The notes beneath the pieces are model-generated. The model was not told the DNA's origin. It saw only the letters and a list, made by a program, of their open reading frames with translations, and searched no databases. A stretch of DNA of 64,000 nucleotides. Origin: Patescibacteria group bacterium (lineage in GTDB: Bacteria > Patescibacteriota > Patescibacteriia > Patescibacteriales > GWC2-42-12). Location of the stretch: the NCBI GenBank assembly GCA_028703305.1, contig JAQVNC010000001.1, positions 56,791 to 120,790 of the forward strand, given 5' to 3'. The position numbers and the translations under genes were made by a program. This document shows, one piece after another, positions 11,309 to 52,423 of the stretch; positions within the stretch are counted from its first letter, which is position 1; every line of letters starts with the position of its first letter.

Positions 11309-12367
11309 ATGTCTTTATCAATCGGAATTGTCGGTTTGCCTAATGTCGGCAAATCAACTTTATTTAACGCTTTAACCAAGAAAAAAGTTGAAGCCTCCAA
11401 TTATCCGTTCTGCACCATTGATCCGAATGTGGGCGTGGTTAAAGTTCCGGACGAAAGGCTGGAAAAATTGGCGACTATTTCCAAGCCTAAAAAAATCATA
11501 CCGGCCTATATTGAATTTGTTGATATCGCCGGCCTGGTTAAGGGCGCGTCCCAAGGCGAAGGGCTGGGCAACCAGTTTTTGTCCCATATTAGAGAGTGCG
11601 ACGCTATTTTAGAAGTGGTGCGCGAATTTAAGGACGATAATATTATTCATGTTAACGGTAAAATTGATCCGGAGGGCGATAAGGAAACCATAAACCTTGA
11701 ATTAATTTTTGCCGACTTGGCCACGGTTGAAAAAAGATTGGATAAAGTCGCACGAGAAGCTAAAAGCGGCAATAAAGAGATGATTGCCTTAAAAGCGCTT
11801 TTGGAAAAATTAAAAATACAGCTTGAGGCCGGCAAGGCTGCGCGCGAGCTTGAGTTAACAGATGATGAAAGAAAAGAAATAAAAAATTTGGGATTGTTAA
11901 CGGTTAAGCCGATAATTTACGTCCTAAACTCCGAGGATAACGCCACTGAAAAATTAGATTGGGGCAGCGAGGTTATTAAAATTAACGCCAAGCTGGAAGA
12001 AGAAATTGCCAGCCTGTCGGAAGATGAGCAGATAGAATATATTAAAGAATTAGGCTTAGACCAAAGCGGTTTGGATAAATTAATTAAAGCTTCATATAAT
12101 GTTTTAGGTCTAATTACTTTTTTAACTACCGGAGCTGACGAAACTCGGGCTTGGACAGTTAAACAAAGCTCTAAAGCGCCGCAAGCGGCCGGCGTCATCC
12201 ATACGGATTTTACCAAAGGCTTTATCCGCGCTGAAATTATTAACTGGCAGAAATTCATTGAAGCCGGATCCGAGGCTAAAGCGCGCGAGCTGGGTTGGAT
12301 TAAAACCGAGGGCAAAGAATATATAATACAAGACGGAGACGTTTGCAATTTTTTAATAAATAATTGA
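11309..12367 (+). CDS. ychF: Ribosome-binding ATPase YchF
   Basis: GIVGLPNVGKSTLFNALT G1 motif, DIAGLVKGASQGEGLGNQFL, and a TGS C-terminal domain. Confidence 0.9.
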   Translation: MSLSIGIVGLPNVGKSTLFNALTKKKVEASNYPFCTIDPNVGVVKVPDERLEKLATISKPKKIIPAYIEFVDIAGLVKGASQGEGLGNQFLSHIRECDAILEVVREFKDDNIIHVNGKIDPEGDKETINLELIFADLATVEKRLDKVAREAKSGNKEMIALKALLEKLKIQLEAGKAARELELTDDERKEIKNLGLLTVKPIIYVLNSEDNATEKLDWGSEVIKINAKLEEEIASLSEDEQIEYIKELGLDQSGLDKLIKASYNVLGLITFLTTGADETRAWTVKQSSKAPQAAGVIHTDFTKGFIRAEIINWQKFIEAGSEAKARELGWIKTEGKEYIIQDGDVCNFLINN

Positions 12368-42696: not shown

Positions 42697-43911
42697 TTAT
42701 AATATTTTAATTATTTTATTTAAACCGTTGATAAATATTTCCGCCTCGGCCATGGTGTTATAAAAATAAAGAGAGGCGCGAGCTGAAGTTTTTATATTAT
42801 GGGCATCAAACCAACTGTGAACGCAGTGCTGGCCCGAACGGATCATAATATTGGAAGTTTCATCCAGCAGCATGGCGATTTGGTTTGAATCCATGCTTTC
42901 AATATAGAATGATACAATGCCGCCTCTTAGGCTCGGGTTAATCGGACCGATTATTTTTGCTTGGGGAATTTTTAAAATTTCTTCGGTGAGATATTCATTT
43001 AACTTGTATTCCTGCTCGGCGATATTTTCATAGCCGATTTTTTTTAAATAATCAACGGCTTCACCTAAGCCGATAATGCCGGCATAATCCTGCAGTCCGG
43101 CTTCAAATTTTTCCGGCAGGGGTAATAATTTATGGCCAGAGTAAGTTGAATATTCAACCGTTTCGCCGCCGGTTAAGAACGGGTCAAGATTTTCCAGTAA
43201 ATATTTTTTGCCGTATAAGACGCCAGTACCGGTCGGCCCAAGCATTTTATGCCCGGAAAACGCCAGAAAATCAACGTCCAAATCGGTTACGTTAATTTTT
43301 TTATGCGGCGCTGATTGAGCCGCGTCTAAAAGTACCAAGGCTCCATGCTGATGCGCTATGTTAATTATTTCTTTGGCCGGAATACTGACGCCGTCAAGAT
43401 TTGAAGTCTGGACCATGGCGACTAATTTTACCTGCCCACTCATCATGCTCTCAAATTTTTCCAGGTCAAAAGTATTGTCCGGTTTTGAAGGAACGATTTT
43501 ATGAATTACGTTGATTTTTTTTGTCAGAATCTGCCAGGGTATTAGATTGGAATTATGTTCTTTGTCAGTAGTTAAAATTATGTCGCCCGGGCTTAATTTT
43601 AGGCTGTGGGCGATTAAGTTTATGCCTTCAGTGGTGTTGCGGGTAAAAATTATTTCCTCCGTATGTTTTGCATTGATAAATTCGGCTATGGTTTTCCTGG
43701 CCTCAGCCACTTTTTTAGTTACCATATCCGCCAGCTTATGTCCGCTTCGTCCGGCGCAAGCCGGGTAATCATTATAATACTCATTTATGGCTTTAATCAC
43801 GGGTAATGGCTTTAAGCTCATACAGGCATTATCAAAATAAACCGGCGGCTGGCCGTTGATTGTTTTTTGGAATAAGGCGAAATCTTGCCGGATTTTTTCC
43901 AGATTTATCAT
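42697..43911 (-). CDS. Cysteine desulfurase (class V aminotransferase, SufS/NifS-like)
   Basis: PLP lysine context AFSGHKMLGPTGTGVLYGKK and a C-terminal catalytic-Cys region. Confidence 0.8.
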   Translation of the reverse strand: MINLEKIRQDFALFQKTINGQPPVYFDNACMSLKPLPVIKAINEYYNDYPACAGRSGHKLADMVTKKVAEARKTIAEFINAKHTEEIIFTRNTTEGINLIAHSLKLSPGDIILTTDKEHNSNLIPWQILTKKINVIHKIVPSKPDNTFDLEKFESMMSGQVKLVAMVQTSNLDGVSIPAKEIINIAHQHGALVLLDAAQSAPHKKINVTDLDVDFLAFSGHKMLGPTGTGVLYGKKYLLENLDPFLTGGETVEYSTYSGHKLLPLPEKFEAGLQDYAGIIGLGEAVDYLKKIGYENIAEQEYKLNEYLTEEILKIPQAKIIGPINPSLRGGIVSFYIESMDSNQIAMLLDETSNIMIRSGQHCVHSWFDAHNIKTSARASLYFYNTMAEAEIFINGLNKIIKIL

Positions 43912-46038: not shown

Positions 46039-46565
46039 ATGTGTTTTAATAATATTTTTGCCCGGCTAATGCGGGTGGCGACCGTACCTATCGGCAATCT
46101 TAAAATGTCACTGATTTCTTCGTAAGACTGCTCGTCAATATAATGTAGCCTTAATGGCTCGGCGTAAAGCAGCGGCATTTCATTGAAACATTTTTCAATG
46201 TTTTCGGCGATTTCTTGGCGCTCAAAATTTATTTCAATATTCTCCCCGCTTTTAAAATCAACTTTATCTAAAATTGGGGTTTCTTTTTGGTATTTTTTAA
46301 TAATATTTAAGGCTTCATTATGGACAATGCGGTAGATCCAGCTGGAAAATTTCTTTTTAACGTTAAAGCCTTTTAAATTGATGAAAGCTTTAATGAAAGC
46401 GGTTTGGACGATATCGGCGGCACTGGCTTCGTTTTTAGTTAAATTAACGGCATAGCGCAAAAGTTTGTCCTGATAGCGGCTGATTATGACGGCATAAAGC
46501 TCCTGGTCTTCTGACCGGACTTTTTCAATCATGGCTTCGTCAGAAAACTCTTTATATTCTTTCAT
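46023..46565 (-). CDS. ECF-type RNA polymerase sigma-70 factor
   Basis: Region 2 (SSWIYRIVHNEALN) and region 4 HTH (LPIGTVATRISRAK). Confidence 0.85.
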   Translation of the reverse strand: MKEYKEFSDEAMIEKVRSEDQELYAVIISRYQDKLLRYAVNLTKNEASAADIVQTAFIKAFINLKGFNVKKKFSSWIYRIVHNEALNIIKKYQKETPILDKVDFKSGENIEINFERQEIAENIEKCFNEMPLLYAEPLRLHYIDEQSYEEISDILRLPIGTVATRISRAKILLKHICQKK

Positions 46566-47954: not shown

Positions 47955-48988
47955 TTATCTTAGGTATTGAAACATCTTGCGATGAAACCGCGGCTACGGT
48001 TTTACACGGGGCTGGTAATAAAATAAAAGTTTTATCCAACGTGGTGTCATCGCAAATTGAGATACATAAAAAATACGGCGGCGTGGTGCCGGAAGTGGCG
48101 GCTAGGGAGCATGTTTTAAATATTTTGCCGGTAGTAAATGAAGCTTTGAGAAAGGCTAAAATCCTCCTAGCCCCCTTTGTTAAAGGGGGTAAAAAAATTG
48201 ACGCCATCGCGGTAACAATTGGGCCGGGTCTAATTACTTCTTTGTTGGTGGGCGTGGAAACGGCCAAGACTTTAGCCTATGCCTGGGGCGTACCGGCGGT
48301 GGCGGTCAATCACATTGAAGGCCATATCTATGCCAATTTTATAAATAACCAGCCAAAATTTCCCGCCTTGATTTTAACCGTTAGCGGCGGGCATACCATG
48401 CTTATTTTAATGAGCGGGCATGGAAAATATAAAGTTTTGGGCGAAACGCGGGACGACGCGGCCGGTGAAGCGTTTGATAAAGCGGCGCAATTACTGGGGT
48501 TGGGATATCCGGGCGGTCCGATAATCGCCGCCGAAGCGCTTAAGGCAAAAAATAAAAATTTGAGCTTGCCTAGGCCAATGCTTAATTCTGGCGATTTTGA
48601 TTTTTCTTTTTCCGGGCTTAAAACCGCGCTATTATATGAAATACAGAAAGATAAAAATTGGCGGAAAAGAATACCGGATTATGCTTATGAATTTGAACAG
48701 GCCGTGGCGGATGTATTAGTGAGTAAAACCATTAAAGCGGCTTTAAAATATAAGGTAAAAAACATAATGTTGTCCGGTGGTGTGGCCGCGAACCTAGAGC
48801 TGAGAAGCCAACTGGATCAAGCTGTGAAAAATAAATTAACTGGCGCGAAATTAATTATTCCGGAATTTAAATATTGTACTGATAACGCGGCCATGATTGC
48901 CGTGGCCGGCTACTTTCGAGCTAAAAGAAAAGATTTTACGCCGTGGCAAAAGCTAAAAGCGGATGCGAATTTAGAATTGACAAAATAA
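47951..48988 (+). CDS. tsaD: tRNA N6-adenosine threonylcarbamoyltransferase TsaD
   Basis: MIILGIETSCDETAATV…, HxxGH metal site; ATGA overlap with the upstream gene. Confidence 0.85.
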   Translation: MIILGIETSCDETAATVLHGAGNKIKVLSNVVSSQIEIHKKYGGVVPEVAAREHVLNILPVVNEALRKAKILLAPFVKGGKKIDAIAVTIGPGLITSLLVGVETAKTLAYAWGVPAVAVNHIEGHIYANFINNQPKFPALILTVSGGHTMLILMSGHGKYKVLGETRDDAAGEAFDKAAQLLGLGYPGGPIIAAEALKAKNKNLSLPRPMLNSGDFDFSFSGLKTALLYEIQKDKNWRKRIPDYAYEFEQAVADVLVSKTIKAALKYKVKNIMLSGGVAANLELRSQLDQAVKNKLTGAKLIIPEFKYCTDNAAMIAVAGYFRAKRKDFTPWQKLKADANLELTK

Positions 48989-49004
48989 TTATATTTGCTA
49001 TACT
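48977..49004 (+). promoter_or_regulatory. Consensus sigma70 promoter (TTGACA-16-TATACT) overlapping the tsaD stop
   Basis: ttgaca aaataattatatttgc tatact. Confidence 0.6.
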
Positions 49005-49011
49005 GATTTTA

Positions 49012-49296
49012 GAACTTAACAATCATAAAACCCGTTCGGATCCCGAGTAATCGGGATTGGGTCTGAACATAAAGGGTGGTTTCTGCATTAGTGGAAACCC
49101 GGCTTCCTCCGTAACCATAGGATAATTGATGTCTTCTGCCTTTGGGCAGAGTATGAGTCAATGAGCGGAAACAAAGCGCTCAAAAGCGTTTTTTTGTTTT
49201 CGGAATAAGGGTGGCAACACGTAAAGTTAAAGGCTTTTCGTCCCTTAAGCATAGTTTGGCTATGTTTAAGAGAGGGGAAGCTTTTTTGTTTTTTTA
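49012..49296 (+). promoter_or_regulatory. Candidate T-box riboswitch leader with a Trp (UGG) specifier
   Basis: AAUAAGGGUGGCAACACG (T-box-like; AAGGG…CCCUU antiterminator with a UGGC bulge) lies about 60 nt upstream of an alternative terminator hairpin plus UUUUUUGUUUUUUU; an agUGGAaa specifier candidate in a 5' stem; a GUAA-tetraloop hairpin. Confidence 0.45.
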
Positions 49297-49329
49297 AATT
49301 GAACATTATAAATTAAGGAGGGAAAAATT

Positions 49330-49503
49330 ATGAAATGCGGTAAACATCCGGATGTGAAAATGGTAGTTAAGGAAATGGCGGTTGGCTGGGGCAATGAAAG
49401 CAAATTAGTTTGCCCAAAATGCGAAGAGGAAGCAAAAGCGTCGGCTGATAAAACAATTGGTTCTCAGGCGGTTTTTTCAGTAGGAGGGCATGGCGGCTGG
49501 TAA
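49330..49503 (+). CDS. Small (57 aa) zinc-ribbon protein; not in the ORF track because it is under 60 aa
   Basis: Strong SD (aaggaggg) 6 nt before the ATG; MKCGKH…CPKCEEE. Confidence 0.5.
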   Translation: MKCGKHPDVKMVVKEMAVGWGNESKLVCPKCEEEAKASADKTIGSQAVFSVGGHGGW

Positions 49504-49597
49504 TAGCCAAAACGCGGGGAACGAAATTATCTTTCGTTGCCCGCTCTTTTTTAAAATTAAACTTTACAAATTAACCAAATAAATATAGAATAAAACC

Positions 49598-50626
49598 ATG
49601 GAATTAAATAAAAACAACAATAAACCAACTGTTTTTTCCGGAGTTCAGCCTTCGGGCGTTTTGCATTTGGGCAATTATCTGGGTGCTTTGGCCCAATGGG
49701 TGGAAATGCAGAATCAATTTAACTGCATTTTTTGCGTGGTGGATTACCATGCCATTACGGTTAAACAGGAGGCTAAAAATTTATCTGAGAATATTTTAAA
49801 TGTGGTAAAAGCATATCTGGCTTCCGGCATCAACCCGGAAAGATCCGTAATTTTTCAGCAATCGGATATTACGGCGCATACGGAGTTGGCTTGGATTTTA
49901 AATTGCGTGGCCAGAATGTCGGATTTAAATAAGATGACGCAATTTAAGGAAAAAGGTCTGGGCAAAGAATCGGTCGGCGTGGGGCTTTTTGATTATCCGG
50001 TTTTAATGGCGGCCGATATTTTACTCTATAATACCGATGCCGTGCCGGTCGGCGAAGATCAAGTCCAGCATGTGGAATTAACCCGCACGCTGGCAAAAAG
50101 ATTTAATAATGAATATGGCAATGTGTTTAAAATTCCCGAAGTAACGGTCAGGAAACAAGGCGCGCGCATTATGGGGCTTGACGATCCAACGAAAAAAATG
50201 AGCAAAAGCGCGGCTTCGGCGGCCAATTATATTTCTTTATTAGACAGGCCGGAAGCGGCGGCCAAGAAAATTACGCGGGCGGTAACCGACTCGGGCTCGG
50301 AAATAAAATATGACGCGAAGAAAAAGCCGGCCATTGCCAATTTAATGACGATTTATTCATTGTTGTCCAATACGAGTATTAAAGAGCTGGAGGCGAAGTA
50401 TGAAGATAAAGGTCCCGCCTACGCTAAAGCTTCGGCGGGCAAGTATGGTGATTTTAAAAAAGATTTAGCTGGGGTGGTCGTAGAGTTTTTAAATGAATTT
50501 CAAATTAAATATAATAGTTTTAGCGATAAAGAAGTAAAGCAAATTCTAAAAGACGGCGCGGAAAAAGTCAGGCCGATAGCCGAAGCGACATTAAAAAATG
50601 TAAAAAATAATTTAGGCATTAACTAA
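49598..50626 (+). CDS. trpS: Tryptophan--tRNA ligase
   Basis: PSGVLHLGNYLGA (HIGH-type) and KMSKS. Confidence 0.9.
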   Translation: MELNKNNNKPTVFSGVQPSGVLHLGNYLGALAQWVEMQNQFNCIFCVVDYHAITVKQEAKNLSENILNVVKAYLASGINPERSVIFQQSDITAHTELAWILNCVARMSDLNKMTQFKEKGLGKESVGVGLFDYPVLMAADILLYNTDAVPVGEDQVQHVELTRTLAKRFNNEYGNVFKIPEVTVRKQGARIMGLDDPTKKMSKSAASAANYISLLDRPEAAAKKITRAVTDSGSEIKYDAKKKPAIANLMTIYSLLSNTSIKELEAKYEDKGPAYAKASAGKYGDFKKDLAGVVVEFLNEFQIKYNSFSDKEVKQILKDGAEKVRPIAEATLKNVKNNLGIN

Positions 50627-50629
50627 ATT

Positions 50630-50700
50630 GTTATTGCGAAAAATTTCTGGATTCCCGCCTGCGCGGGAATGACAAATTGGAGATTGGTCGCAATGACATT
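50630..50700 (+). repeat. Short hairpin repeat S4 (tttctggattcccgcctgcgcgggaatgacaa) nested inside a minimal gttattgcgaa…gtcgcaatgaca frame; it supplies ATGs upstream of gdh
   Basis: Shares the consensus of the other S copies; the flanks resemble the termini of the L family. Confidence 0.65.
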
Positions 50701-52070: not shown

Positions 52071-52367
52071 ATGGATATCCAAGAACTTTTAGCTTCGGCT
52101 AAAACGCAAACCTTTGACCGGTTCGCGCAAAAGCTAAATACTTTAGTCAGAGAAAATTACCGCTTTAGCAATTTGGACGAAGCTAACAGGAAAATTGTTT
52201 TAGATATAATTAAGAAGCATTTAGGCGATATCCATCGCGGCCAGGGCATCTCTTCGGTGGTTTTAGAGCGGGAAAGTTATAATTTGTACCAAAATCGAGA
52301 GAAGCTGAAATTGACCGAAGAAGATTTGAAAGACATTAAGGAGATATTGAGATTATTTAAAAAATAG
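52071..52367 (+). CDS. Hypothetical protein (98 aa)
   Basis: An ORF with plausible start context; no recognisable family. Confidence 0.4.
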   Translation: MDIQELLASAKTQTFDRFAQKLNTLVRENYRFSNLDEANRKIVLDIIKKHLGDIHRGQGISSVVLERESYNLYQNREKLKLTEEDLKDIKEILRLFKK

Positions 52368-52423
52368 AAGACAAATAAAAAAGCCGAGGCGATAACAGCC
52401 TCGGCTTTTTTATATGAAAAATT

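Follow-up and report, generated by a model that had tools for sequence, protein, structure and literature searches.

T-boxes are listed in Firmicutes, Actinobacteria, Chloroflexi, Deinococcus-Thermus and two Proteobacteria in a survey of 2008, which also reports, for Dehalococcoides (Chloroflexi), a trpB-like gene preceded by a T-box (PMC2494555). A truncated stem I has been described for the translational T-boxes of Actinobacteria, in which stem II and the IIA/B pseudoknot then become essential for tRNA binding (PMC7583486), and in Bacillus subtilis the gene rtpA, which encodes the 53-amino-acid (aa) zinc-binding protein anti-TRAP, is induced through a tryptophan (Trp) T-box (PMC10327191). 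A limited search of the literature yielded no paper combining T-boxes with Patescibacteria or the candidate phyla radiation (CPR), which is not proof that none exists. In this study we analyzed a 64,000-nt stretch of contig JAQVNC010000001.1 from a Patescibacteria group bacterium (hereafter the window), in which a structured leader precedes the gene of a 57-aa zinc-ribbon-like micro-protein and the tryptophan-tRNA ligase gene trpS. We propose, with a probability of roughly 0.7, that this leader is a Trp-specific T-box transcription attenuator of unusual build, that its cargo is the micro-protein gene and that trpS is expressed separately; what is new would be a transcriptional T-box with a short, Actinobacteria-like decoding module and a micro-protein as cargo. 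The covarying structure, the competing helices, the cargo and the synteny were observed in the sequences, and from these we infer the binding of tRNA, the specificity for Trp and the ends of the transcripts.

The first-pass annotation of this DNA had placed a near-consensus promoter at 48977-49004, and the assignment held on closer analysis. On the plus strand, which carries all features of the locus described below, a -35 TTGACA (48977-48982) is followed by a 16-nt spacer that includes an extended -10 TG (48996-48997), and by a -10 TATACT (48999-49004). The resulting TTGACA-16-TGcTATACT matches the consensus at 11 of 12 positions, and the layout TTGACA-16-TGnTAnnnT is present in all 17 leaders of the family described below. 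The leader, about 285 nt long where some 280 nt had been proposed, is strongly structured, with a minimum-free-energy z-score of -5.9 and none of 200 shuffled sequences folding as well. Using permissive filters, the Rfam T-box model RF00230 matched 49025-49248 from end to end with 38 bits (E = 7.3e-7 in the 671-nt region and 6.9e-5 in the whole 64-kb window), and this was the sole T-box match in the window. The posterior probabilities of the alignment peak over the T-box sequence and the antiterminator, and about 90 stem I positions of the model are replaced by 38 nt. The search with Infernal and RF00230 suggested earlier therefore gave a divided answer, a match above chance but one below the gathering score of 93 bits, and since 38 bits falls under that score, a default Rfam scan of the whole window reported seven tRNAs and no T-box. 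The leaders of the relatives score 29.5-37.7 bits with RF00230, and six T-box matches in the Patescibacteria lineage (five family leaders and an Asp T-box at locus L103) range from 29 to 46 bits. Because such scores lie under the gathering score, T-boxes of Patescibacteria go unannotated, in agreement with the earlier suggestion that this is a lineage where such leaders are rarely annotated, and databases miss the present leader because the usual long tRNA-gripping arm is absent.

The switch at the 3’ end of the leader is the part that most resembles known T-boxes. The T-box sequence AAUAAGGGUGGCAACACG occupies 49204-49221 in the Rfam alignment and opens an antiterminator that extends to 49246, in which helix A1 pairs 49207-49211 with 49242-49246 and helix A2 starts at 49219. 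The 7-nt bulge UGGCAAC (49212-49218) of this structure begins with UGGC (49212-49215), as the first-pass annotation had recognized, and would face the GCCA 3’ end of a tRNA. The competition proposed between the AAGGG/CCCUU antiterminator (49207-49246) and a downstream terminator was also evident, as a hairpin at 49229-49285 with a U-run to 49296 sequesters the 3’ strand of the antiterminator. In the window the calculated free energies are -8.4 kcal/mol for the antiterminator and -28.9 kcal/mol for the terminator. In the 16 of 17 leaders that were folded (the terminator of L102 was read from the sequence only), the antiterminator ranges from -5.6 to -9.9 kcal/mol and the terminator, followed by a U-run, from -27 to -45 kcal/mol. 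All leaders analyzed contain the antiterminator with a 7-nt UGGN bulge; most have C at position N, and two have U. The usual discriminator of bacterial tRNA-Trp is G73, with which both C and U can pair. We also looked for sequestration of the Shine-Dalgarno (SD) sequence by the switch, as in translational (class II) T-boxes, and did not find it; the SD sequence (AAGGAGG, 49315-49321) is free and outside the competing helix, and the terminator, whose U-run ends at 49296, lies about 30 nt before it. As the terminator with its U-run precedes a free SD sequence, the switch is expected to act on transcription. We consider it very likely that the element is a T-box.

Stem I (49031-49076) is truncated, and its layout was derived from the RNAalifold consensus and counts of base pairs. 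A base helix (49031-49033 with 49074-49076) and a lower helix (49034-49041 with 49061-49068) carry an upper hairpin (49042-49046 with 49051-49055) closed by the GUAA tetraloop that had been pointed out earlier (49042-49055). The 3’ side is interrupted by an asymmetric loop, AUAAA (49069-49073), in place of which distant family members have a hairpin, and by a 5-nt bulge, AUUGG (49056-49060). The helices 1-4 of stem I are 94-100% paired, with both sides changed in 11 of 16 pairs, and folds of single sequences reproduced the layout in most of the 15 leaders tested, the exceptions being L100 and L105, which carry large insertions (relatives are designated by L numbers). The sequence UUGGG is invariant in 17/17 leaders, and the flanking helices covary and are wholly different in distant members. 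Its last G (G49061), next to the bulge, pairs with U49041, and the UGG at 49058-49060 is unpaired in the consensus fold, making the (A/G)UUGG bulge the sole invariant unpaired UGG of stem I. UGG is the only Trp codon, and in T-boxes the codon is found where this UGG stands, immediately above the lower helix in the 3’ strand of stem I. We therefore propose UGG 49058-49060 as the putative specifier codon, matching the Trp-related cargo of the relatives (trpB2 or trpA-trpB2), and judge it likely from these sequence comparisons that the T-box is specific for Trp. The specifier loop proposed earlier, agUGGAaa with UGG at 49092-49094, was rejected; it is the 3’ strand of the covarying stem II, and the site, with GUU or GAU in relatives, reads GUGUUA in L002, L005 and L084 and GUGAUA in L093, the opposite strand having changed to match. 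The UGG at the junction of stems I and II (49077-49079) was likewise discarded, being CGG in L098. The family covariance model detected no leader of the same architecture with another codon in 660 kb.

Stem II (49078-49099) was recognized by covariation and from the Rfam alignment to the GAA/AGUA portions of that stem, with double changes in 4 of 9 pairs. Its invariant apex, UGC-RUUA-GUG, is a degenerate cap resembling an S-turn. The following segment (49100-49122) includes the F-box-like sequence CCGUAA, compared to CCGUCA in the F-box, and forms stem IIA (49100-49102 with 49109-49111) and the pseudoknot IIB (49105-49108 with 49119-49122). The pseudoknot is supported by covariation at pair 116-127, where U-A changes to C-G or U-G, and at pair 113-130, where U-A changes to G-C in L111, L102 and L105; the roles of the F-box and the IIA/B pseudoknot have been described (PMC7583486). 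An extra hairpin between the pseudoknot and stem III (49125-49162) lies outside the Rfam consensus, which aligns it as an insertion, and shows double changes in 7 of 10 pairs. Stem III (49166-49202) holds a GC hairpin (49176-49189) and then seven U residues (U7, 49189-49195). Of 16 leaders, 12 have a similar short hairpin followed by U7-8 at 8-12 nt (32 nt in L001) 5’ of the T-box sequence, and the hairpin occurs in five sequence versions. This hairpin with its U7 looks like an RNA polymerase pause site or a weak terminator, judging by sequence, and suggests a pause that might give the tRNA time to bind.

Compared with canonical transcriptional T-boxes (RF00230, such as tyrS and trpS of Bacillus subtilis), the leader shares the T-box sequence, the 7-nt UGGN bulge of the antiterminator, the overlapping terminator, stem II, the IIA/B pseudoknot and stem III, and in both the codon belongs to the 3’ strand of stem I. 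It differs in having a stem I of about 46 nt, a codon in a 5-nt bulge rather than in a specifier loop with an S-turn, the extra hairpin after the pseudoknot and a low Rfam score (38 vs 93 bits). The distal double T-loop platform (AGAGA and UGxRA) is absent, the upper part of stem I being a hairpin of 5-8 bp with a variable loop of 3-6 nt, and no tandem G-A motif indicative of a K-turn was visible in stem I by eye, without a dedicated K-turn test. The ileS T-boxes of Actinobacteria (Mycobacterium and Nocardia; class II of TBDB) resemble the leader in the short stem I without an elbow motif, in stem II and in the IIA/B pseudoknot. However, they are translational, sequester the SD sequence and respond to Ile, whereas the present leader, from another phylum, is predicted to be transcriptional and to respond to Trp.

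In order to evaluate conservation, we collected relatives in four ways, through trpS loci, the antiterminator pattern, homologues of TrpB2 and the micro-protein family. A TrpS-based scan of species-representative genomes gave 80 loci, the closest from metagenome-assembled genomes (MAGs) of Patescibacteria (Falkowbacteria- and Moranbacteria-like). The leader was present in only three of them (L001, L002 and L005), the same three that have a TrpB2 gene, confirmed as such by NCBIfam NF009057 (730 bits). Neither nhmmer nor the covariance model revealed a hidden leader upstream of trpS in the T-box-less relatives. A scan of metagenomes with the antiterminator sequence returned 19 contigs, 14 of them with the leader. 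Six TrpB2 homologues of decreasing identity were then used to fetch contigs so as to avoid motif bias, and four of the six lineages (L100, L102, L105 and L107) had the leader, with the cores UGGCACC and UGGUACC; the other two (L103 and L109) had no leader and a TrpR-like gene nearby. The leaders of L111 and L112 were recovered through the micro-protein family. In 660 kb searched with a covariance model of the decoding domain, the only matches were the 17 distinct leaders, which scored 53-118 bits. RNAalifold predicted 50 base pairs from 12 non-identical leaders, 22 of them with compensatory changes. After addition of the IIB pseudoknot, 98.9% of the cells in the alignment of these 12 leaders were standard pairs and 24 of 54 pairs were double-changed, values reached by none of 500 shuffles (0/500); when the 3’ partners were slid by 1-3 columns, only 29-53% of the cells paired and 2-5 pairs were double-changed. 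Examination of homologous loci, which had been recommended earlier, consequently upheld the covarying fold and the layout of UGGN bulge and terminator in 17 leaders but not the proposed specifier agUGGAaa. A side observation concerns the region 5’ of stem I. In L005 (~640-700) and L112 (~1320-1385) an inverted-repeat insertion of about 60 nt (CACCCYGTTAAAT...ATTTAACAGGG) lies between the transcription start and stem I, and because two independent leaders carry one, this region evidently tolerates insertions.

The first gene after the leader, at 49330-49503, encodes a 57-aa zinc-ribbon-like micro-protein with candidate metal ligands C3, H6, C28 and C31. It begins with MKCGKH, so that the first ligand pair is C3-x2-H6 (KCGKH); the ORF with its SD sequence and ATG is present as the first-pass annotation described it, except that the first pair is not CxxC. 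The ORF was also taken there for an unannotated gene; it follows the leader directly and is conserved, but NCBI already lists it, under PHF50_00660, as a hypothetical protein from a Patescibacteria MAG. SD-like sequences precede just 3 of 50 ORFs in the window, which indicates that the AAGGAGG before this ORF is a real translation signal. Homologues directly after the leader were found in at least eight lineages, and profile searches defined a family of 51-69 aa with the pattern MxC(G/D/E)KHP..EM.V..GGFG.ER...CPECE.EE....FSSG.GW. All members of this family have C3 and C28 and nearly all have C31, and position 6 is usually occupied by His or Cys, an exchange that fits a metal ligand. An AlphaFold2 model has a predicted local distance difference test (pLDDT) score of 67, a modest confidence, and consists of a beta-hairpin and a helix. 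Pfam zinc-ribbon matches were weak and inconsistent, and searches of Pfam, NCBIfam, PDB sequences and folds gave no significant match (Foldseek best E 3.9). In most relatives the micro-protein gene is followed by the gene of a second small protein, about 65 aa long, with invariant LSEIA, IW and LW; no relatives of this protein were detectable and NCBIfam gave no match. A relationship of the 65-aa protein to TrpR was considered and dropped (hhalign probability 0.5%; best E 0.18 in a PDB profile search). One copy of the micro-ORF, of the L083 type (L087:241-420), is frameshifted after residue 14, with four other copies intact, and could represent a sequencing error or a variant.

The gene order downstream of the leader varies among the relatives. 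In L002 and L005 the leader precedes the zinc-ribbon (Zn) ORF, a 66-aa ORF, a hairpin without U-run, trpB2, a terminator, the trpS promoter and trpS, and in L084 the order is the same up to trpB2, where the contig ends, with a 78-aa ORF in second position. L001 has the leader directly followed by trpB2, a terminator, the trpS promoter and trpS, and L107 has the leader, trpA and trpB2. L083 and L098 contain the Zn ORF, a 65-67-aa ORF, a terminator, the trpS promoter and trpS. In L112 the Zn ORF, a 65-aa ORF and a terminator are separated from the trpS promoter and trpS by 2.6 kb that includes opposite-strand genes, and in L111 the Zn ORF, a 67-aa ORF and a terminator are followed by opposite-strand defence genes, with no trpS downstream. 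The window, with the leader, the Zn ORF, a terminator, the trpS promoter and trpS, is the only family member found with the Zn ORF alone; trpB2, trpA, the TrpR-like gene and the gene of the 65-aa protein were not found elsewhere in the 64 kb. The gene trpB2 is commonly missing from the locus (L083, L098, L111 and L112), so it appears to be an optional cargo and not the sole purpose of the leader. The Dehalococcoides T-box mentioned above is comparable, by description and not by sequence, as a Trp-related T-box over a TrpB-like gene, as seen in L001, L002, L100, L102, L105 and L107; the differences are that a zinc-ribbon micro-ORF usually lies between leader and trpB2 here and that trpB2 is absent in the window. 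Together, the UGGN bulge, the overlapping terminator, the invariant UGG and the trpB2 cargo of relatives favor the earlier suggestion of a T-box-type transcription attenuator putatively specific for Trp. As a separate observation, the inserts between the T-box unit and trpS in L111 (4438-8165) and L112 (2458-4608) consist of defence or mobile genes, including AbiEii, HicA/HicB and a diversity-generating retroelement with bAvd and reverse transcriptase.

The boundary between the micro-ORF and trpS contains two elements that the earlier account omitted. The first is a hairpin at 49514-49544 (-19.5 kcal/mol) followed by UCUUUUUU (49545-49552), the putative terminator of the T-box unit. The hairpin is homologous (23/23 nt) to that after the last small ORF in relatives, and the U-run after it is present only where trpS comes next and missing where trpB2 does. 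The second is a promoter for trpS within 49563-49600, with TTTACA (49563-49568), a 17-nt spacer, TAGAAT (49586-49591) and 6 nt to the ATG at 49598. The arrangement TTTACA-17-TAGAAT, with exactly 6 nt to the ATG, was found upstream of trpS in at least ten relatives. It is conserved in the T-box-less L003, L004 and L006, in L112 it lies 2.6 kb from the T-box unit, and in L004 tsaD directly abuts it; since the promoter is kept in relatives without a T-box, next to tsaD in L004, the T-box cassette is best seen as an insert between tsaD and trpS. The trpS gene itself (49598-50626), identified earlier as the gene downstream of the micro-ORF, encodes a protein with the Pfam domain PF00579 (tRNA-synt_1b, 261 bits). 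Most likely trpS has its own transcript, which is probably leaderless, and on balance we favor placing it outside the T-box unit. We had considered the missing SD sequence of trpS as evidence of a leaderless mRNA and abandoned this argument in view of the scarcity of SD sequences (3/50). In the window, 16 of 50 long ORFs have a -10-like TANNNT hexamer whose end lies 5-8 nt from the start codon; the counts are rough, as ORF starts were taken mechanically, and the starts at 46565(-), 47175(+), 42697-43911(-) and 49598(+) serve as examples. From these two frequencies, leaderless or SD-independent initiation looks common in this genome.

We envisage the following mechanism. RNA polymerase would start at the sigma-70-type promoter and produce the leader, in which the truncated stem I would present UGG (49058-49060) in its 5-nt bulge to the anticodon of tRNA-Trp. 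Stem II and the IIA/B pseudoknot would probably clamp the codon-anticodon helix as in the ileS T-boxes of Actinobacteria, there being no elbow platform. The 3’ end of an uncharged tRNA would pair with UGGC and stabilize the weak antiterminator; without uncharged tRNA, the stronger terminator (49229-49296) would form and transcription would stop. Read-through would express the micro-protein, whose level could then report Trp starvation, and the transcript would end at 49514-49552, with trpS being served by a separate promoter and its mRNA probably leaderless. The leader of relatives would also drive the 65-aa partner and often trpB2, which forms tryptophan from indole and serine, and for this reason we regard the unit as a putative Trp-starvation regulon, of which the genome of the window would keep only the micro-protein at this locus.

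Several observations weigh against our proposal. The Rfam score is far under the gathering threshold (38 vs 93 bits), and no canonical S-turn specifier loop, K-turn or distal platform was identifiable in it. An elbow-binding platform occurs in most T-boxes and has been called essential in the transcriptional ones (PMC7583486). All family members appear to be of the Trp type, so no switch of codon supports the specifier, and neither the window nor about 95 fetched loci yielded a tRNA-Trp gene that would show the anticodon and discriminator base. The antiterminator served as the search pattern for 19 loci, and its invariance there is partly built in. The leaders obtained with TrpB2, with UGGCACC or UGGUACC at the bulge position, were fetched without the motif and kept the same design, and so provide an unbiased check of the antiterminator. 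Finally, trpS nearly always follows closely after the cassette in the same orientation and terminators leak, so that some read-through into trpS is possible, and trpS could be translated from such a transcript without an SD sequence, which most genes here lack.

The last points lead to the alternative that the micro-ORF and trpS form one T-box operon whose main purpose is the induction of trpS, as in Bacillus trpS. This would account for the observation that trpS comes directly after the cassette, in the same orientation, in the window, L001, L002, L005, L083, L098, L100, L102 and L105; intrinsic terminators are rarely fully efficient, and genes without SD are evidently translated in this genome. 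A single operon is nevertheless hard to reconcile with the strength of the terminator at 49514-49552 (-19.5 kcal/mol and U-run), with the occurrence of that U-run exactly where trpS follows and its lack where trpB2 follows, and with the conservation of the trpS promoter and its fixed 6-nt spacing to the ATG in relatives that have no T-box. In L112 a 2.6-kb stretch with opposite-strand genes lies between the unit and trpS, in L111 the unit has no trpS downstream, and 76 of the 80 related trpS loci lack the leader. We consider a single operon quite unlikely and, for the same reasons (the terminator, the separate promoter, the split in L112 and the leader at 3/80 trpS loci), co-expression of the micro-protein with trpS, as first suggested, is improbable.

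A second alternative is that the locus is a decaying relic, the lineage of the window having lost trpB2 and the 65-aa gene and retained a non-functional leader and micro-ORF. The window does lack trpB2, trpA, the TrpR-like gene and the 65-aa partner, and no other member has the Zn ORF alone, but its consensus pairs, bulges, promoter, SD sequence and ORF ligands are all intact, its leader scores 117 bits with the family covariance model, among the best, and an optional trpB2 is absent from many lineages, making decay highly improbable. That the leader is a T-box-like attenuator sensing a protein or small molecule, with the UUGGG bulge as ligand site or tertiary contact, is scarcely credible, as the sub-threshold Rfam match, the atypical stem I and the control by distant members of genes with no obvious Trp link (a YbdK-like ligase and an aspartoacylase-like gene) are outweighed by the co-occurrence of the 7-nt UGGN bulge, helices A1 and A2, the overlapping terminator, the F-box-like pseudoknot and stem II, by the fit of trpB2 or trpA-trpB2 cargo and trpS adjacency to Trp, and by UGG, the sole Trp codon, being the only invariant unpaired triplet of stem I. 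The distant leaders are those of L081 (2847-3100), L086 (2435-2694, minus strand) and L092 (7215-7500), which reach 88 bits with the family model, keep the UUGGG bulge and precede a YbdK-like carboxylate-amine ligase gene and an aspartoacylase/AstE-like gene instead of trpB2.

If the leader is a Trp-specific T-box, anti-TRAP is the nearest functional precedent for its micro-protein, by analogy and without homology. Both are tiny proteins with Cys ligands encoded by the first gene after a Trp-specific T-box, and the level of each would report uncharged tRNA-Trp. In contrast to the two DnaJ-like CxxCxGxG motifs of anti-TRAP, the micro-protein has C-x2-H/C ... C-x2-C and is usually accompanied by the 65-aa partner, and a TRAP gene is neither known nor seen here. 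No anti-TRAP chain was among the matches of a profile search of PDB sequences, with E values of up to 10 admitted, and Pfam DnaJ_CXXCXGXG matched one of nine members of the family (E 0.073). We tentatively raise the idea, which on present evidence is unlikely, that Patescibacteria have a T-box class of their own, transcriptional and without an elbow clamp, in which the micro-protein pair is the core cargo and relays the uncharged-tRNA-Trp signal to other targets, as an analogue of anti-TRAP in bacteria of minimal metabolism; the hairpin-plus-U7 pause site perhaps compensates for the missing elbow clamp. More broadly, the results point to tRNA-sensing riboswitches in CPR/Patescibacteria that standard annotation misses and a family-specific model would recover, and highlight two conserved micro-proteins as potentially switched on by tryptophan starvation. 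A decoding module without elbow clamp, coupled to a terminator, would be a natural test case for fast tRNA binding, to be set against the current account (PMC7583486), and the trpB2 cargo suggests that these reduced, probably host-dependent bacteria regulate the salvage of tryptophan from indole.

Other regulatory elements were noted in the relatives. Another Patescibacteria contig, L103 (6575-6710; also L104), carries directly upstream of aspS (NF001750, 599 bits) a different T-box, which has the core AGGGUGGCACCGCG and a terminator and scores 45.5 bits in Rfam; a GAC-A triplet lies just 3’ of a hairpin. The decoding domain of this T-box differs from that of the Trp leader family, and this aspS T-box indicates that T-boxes in the Patescibacteria lineage are not restricted to Trp. 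The T-box-less trpB2 loci of Patescibacteria at L103 (3447-3743) and L109 (2782-3102) have a TrpR-like gene just upstream (Pfam Trp_repressor; TIGR01321 55 bits, below the cut-off), which suggests that RNA-based and protein-based control of Trp genes alternate between lineages.

Two further features were noted in the window. At 52353-52414, between a glutamate dehydrogenase gene and a minus-strand gene, a sub-threshold match to the Rfam threonine operon leader (38.7 bits vs 55, E 0.0012), overlapped by a weak match on the opposite strand, is probably just a palindromic terminator. A palindromic repeat, GGATTCCCGCCTGCGCGGGAATGACA, at 50649-50674, and related ...CGCAATGACA elements recur between genes in the window and in relatives. 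Such repeats, often just upstream of gene starts, were seen before the ORFs starting at 11309, 37732(-) and 57672 and in L001 (1585-1615), L002 (2560-2600) and L102 (3890-3930), and probably belong to a family like repetitive extragenic palindromic (REP) sequences or miniature inverted-repeat transposable elements (MITEs).

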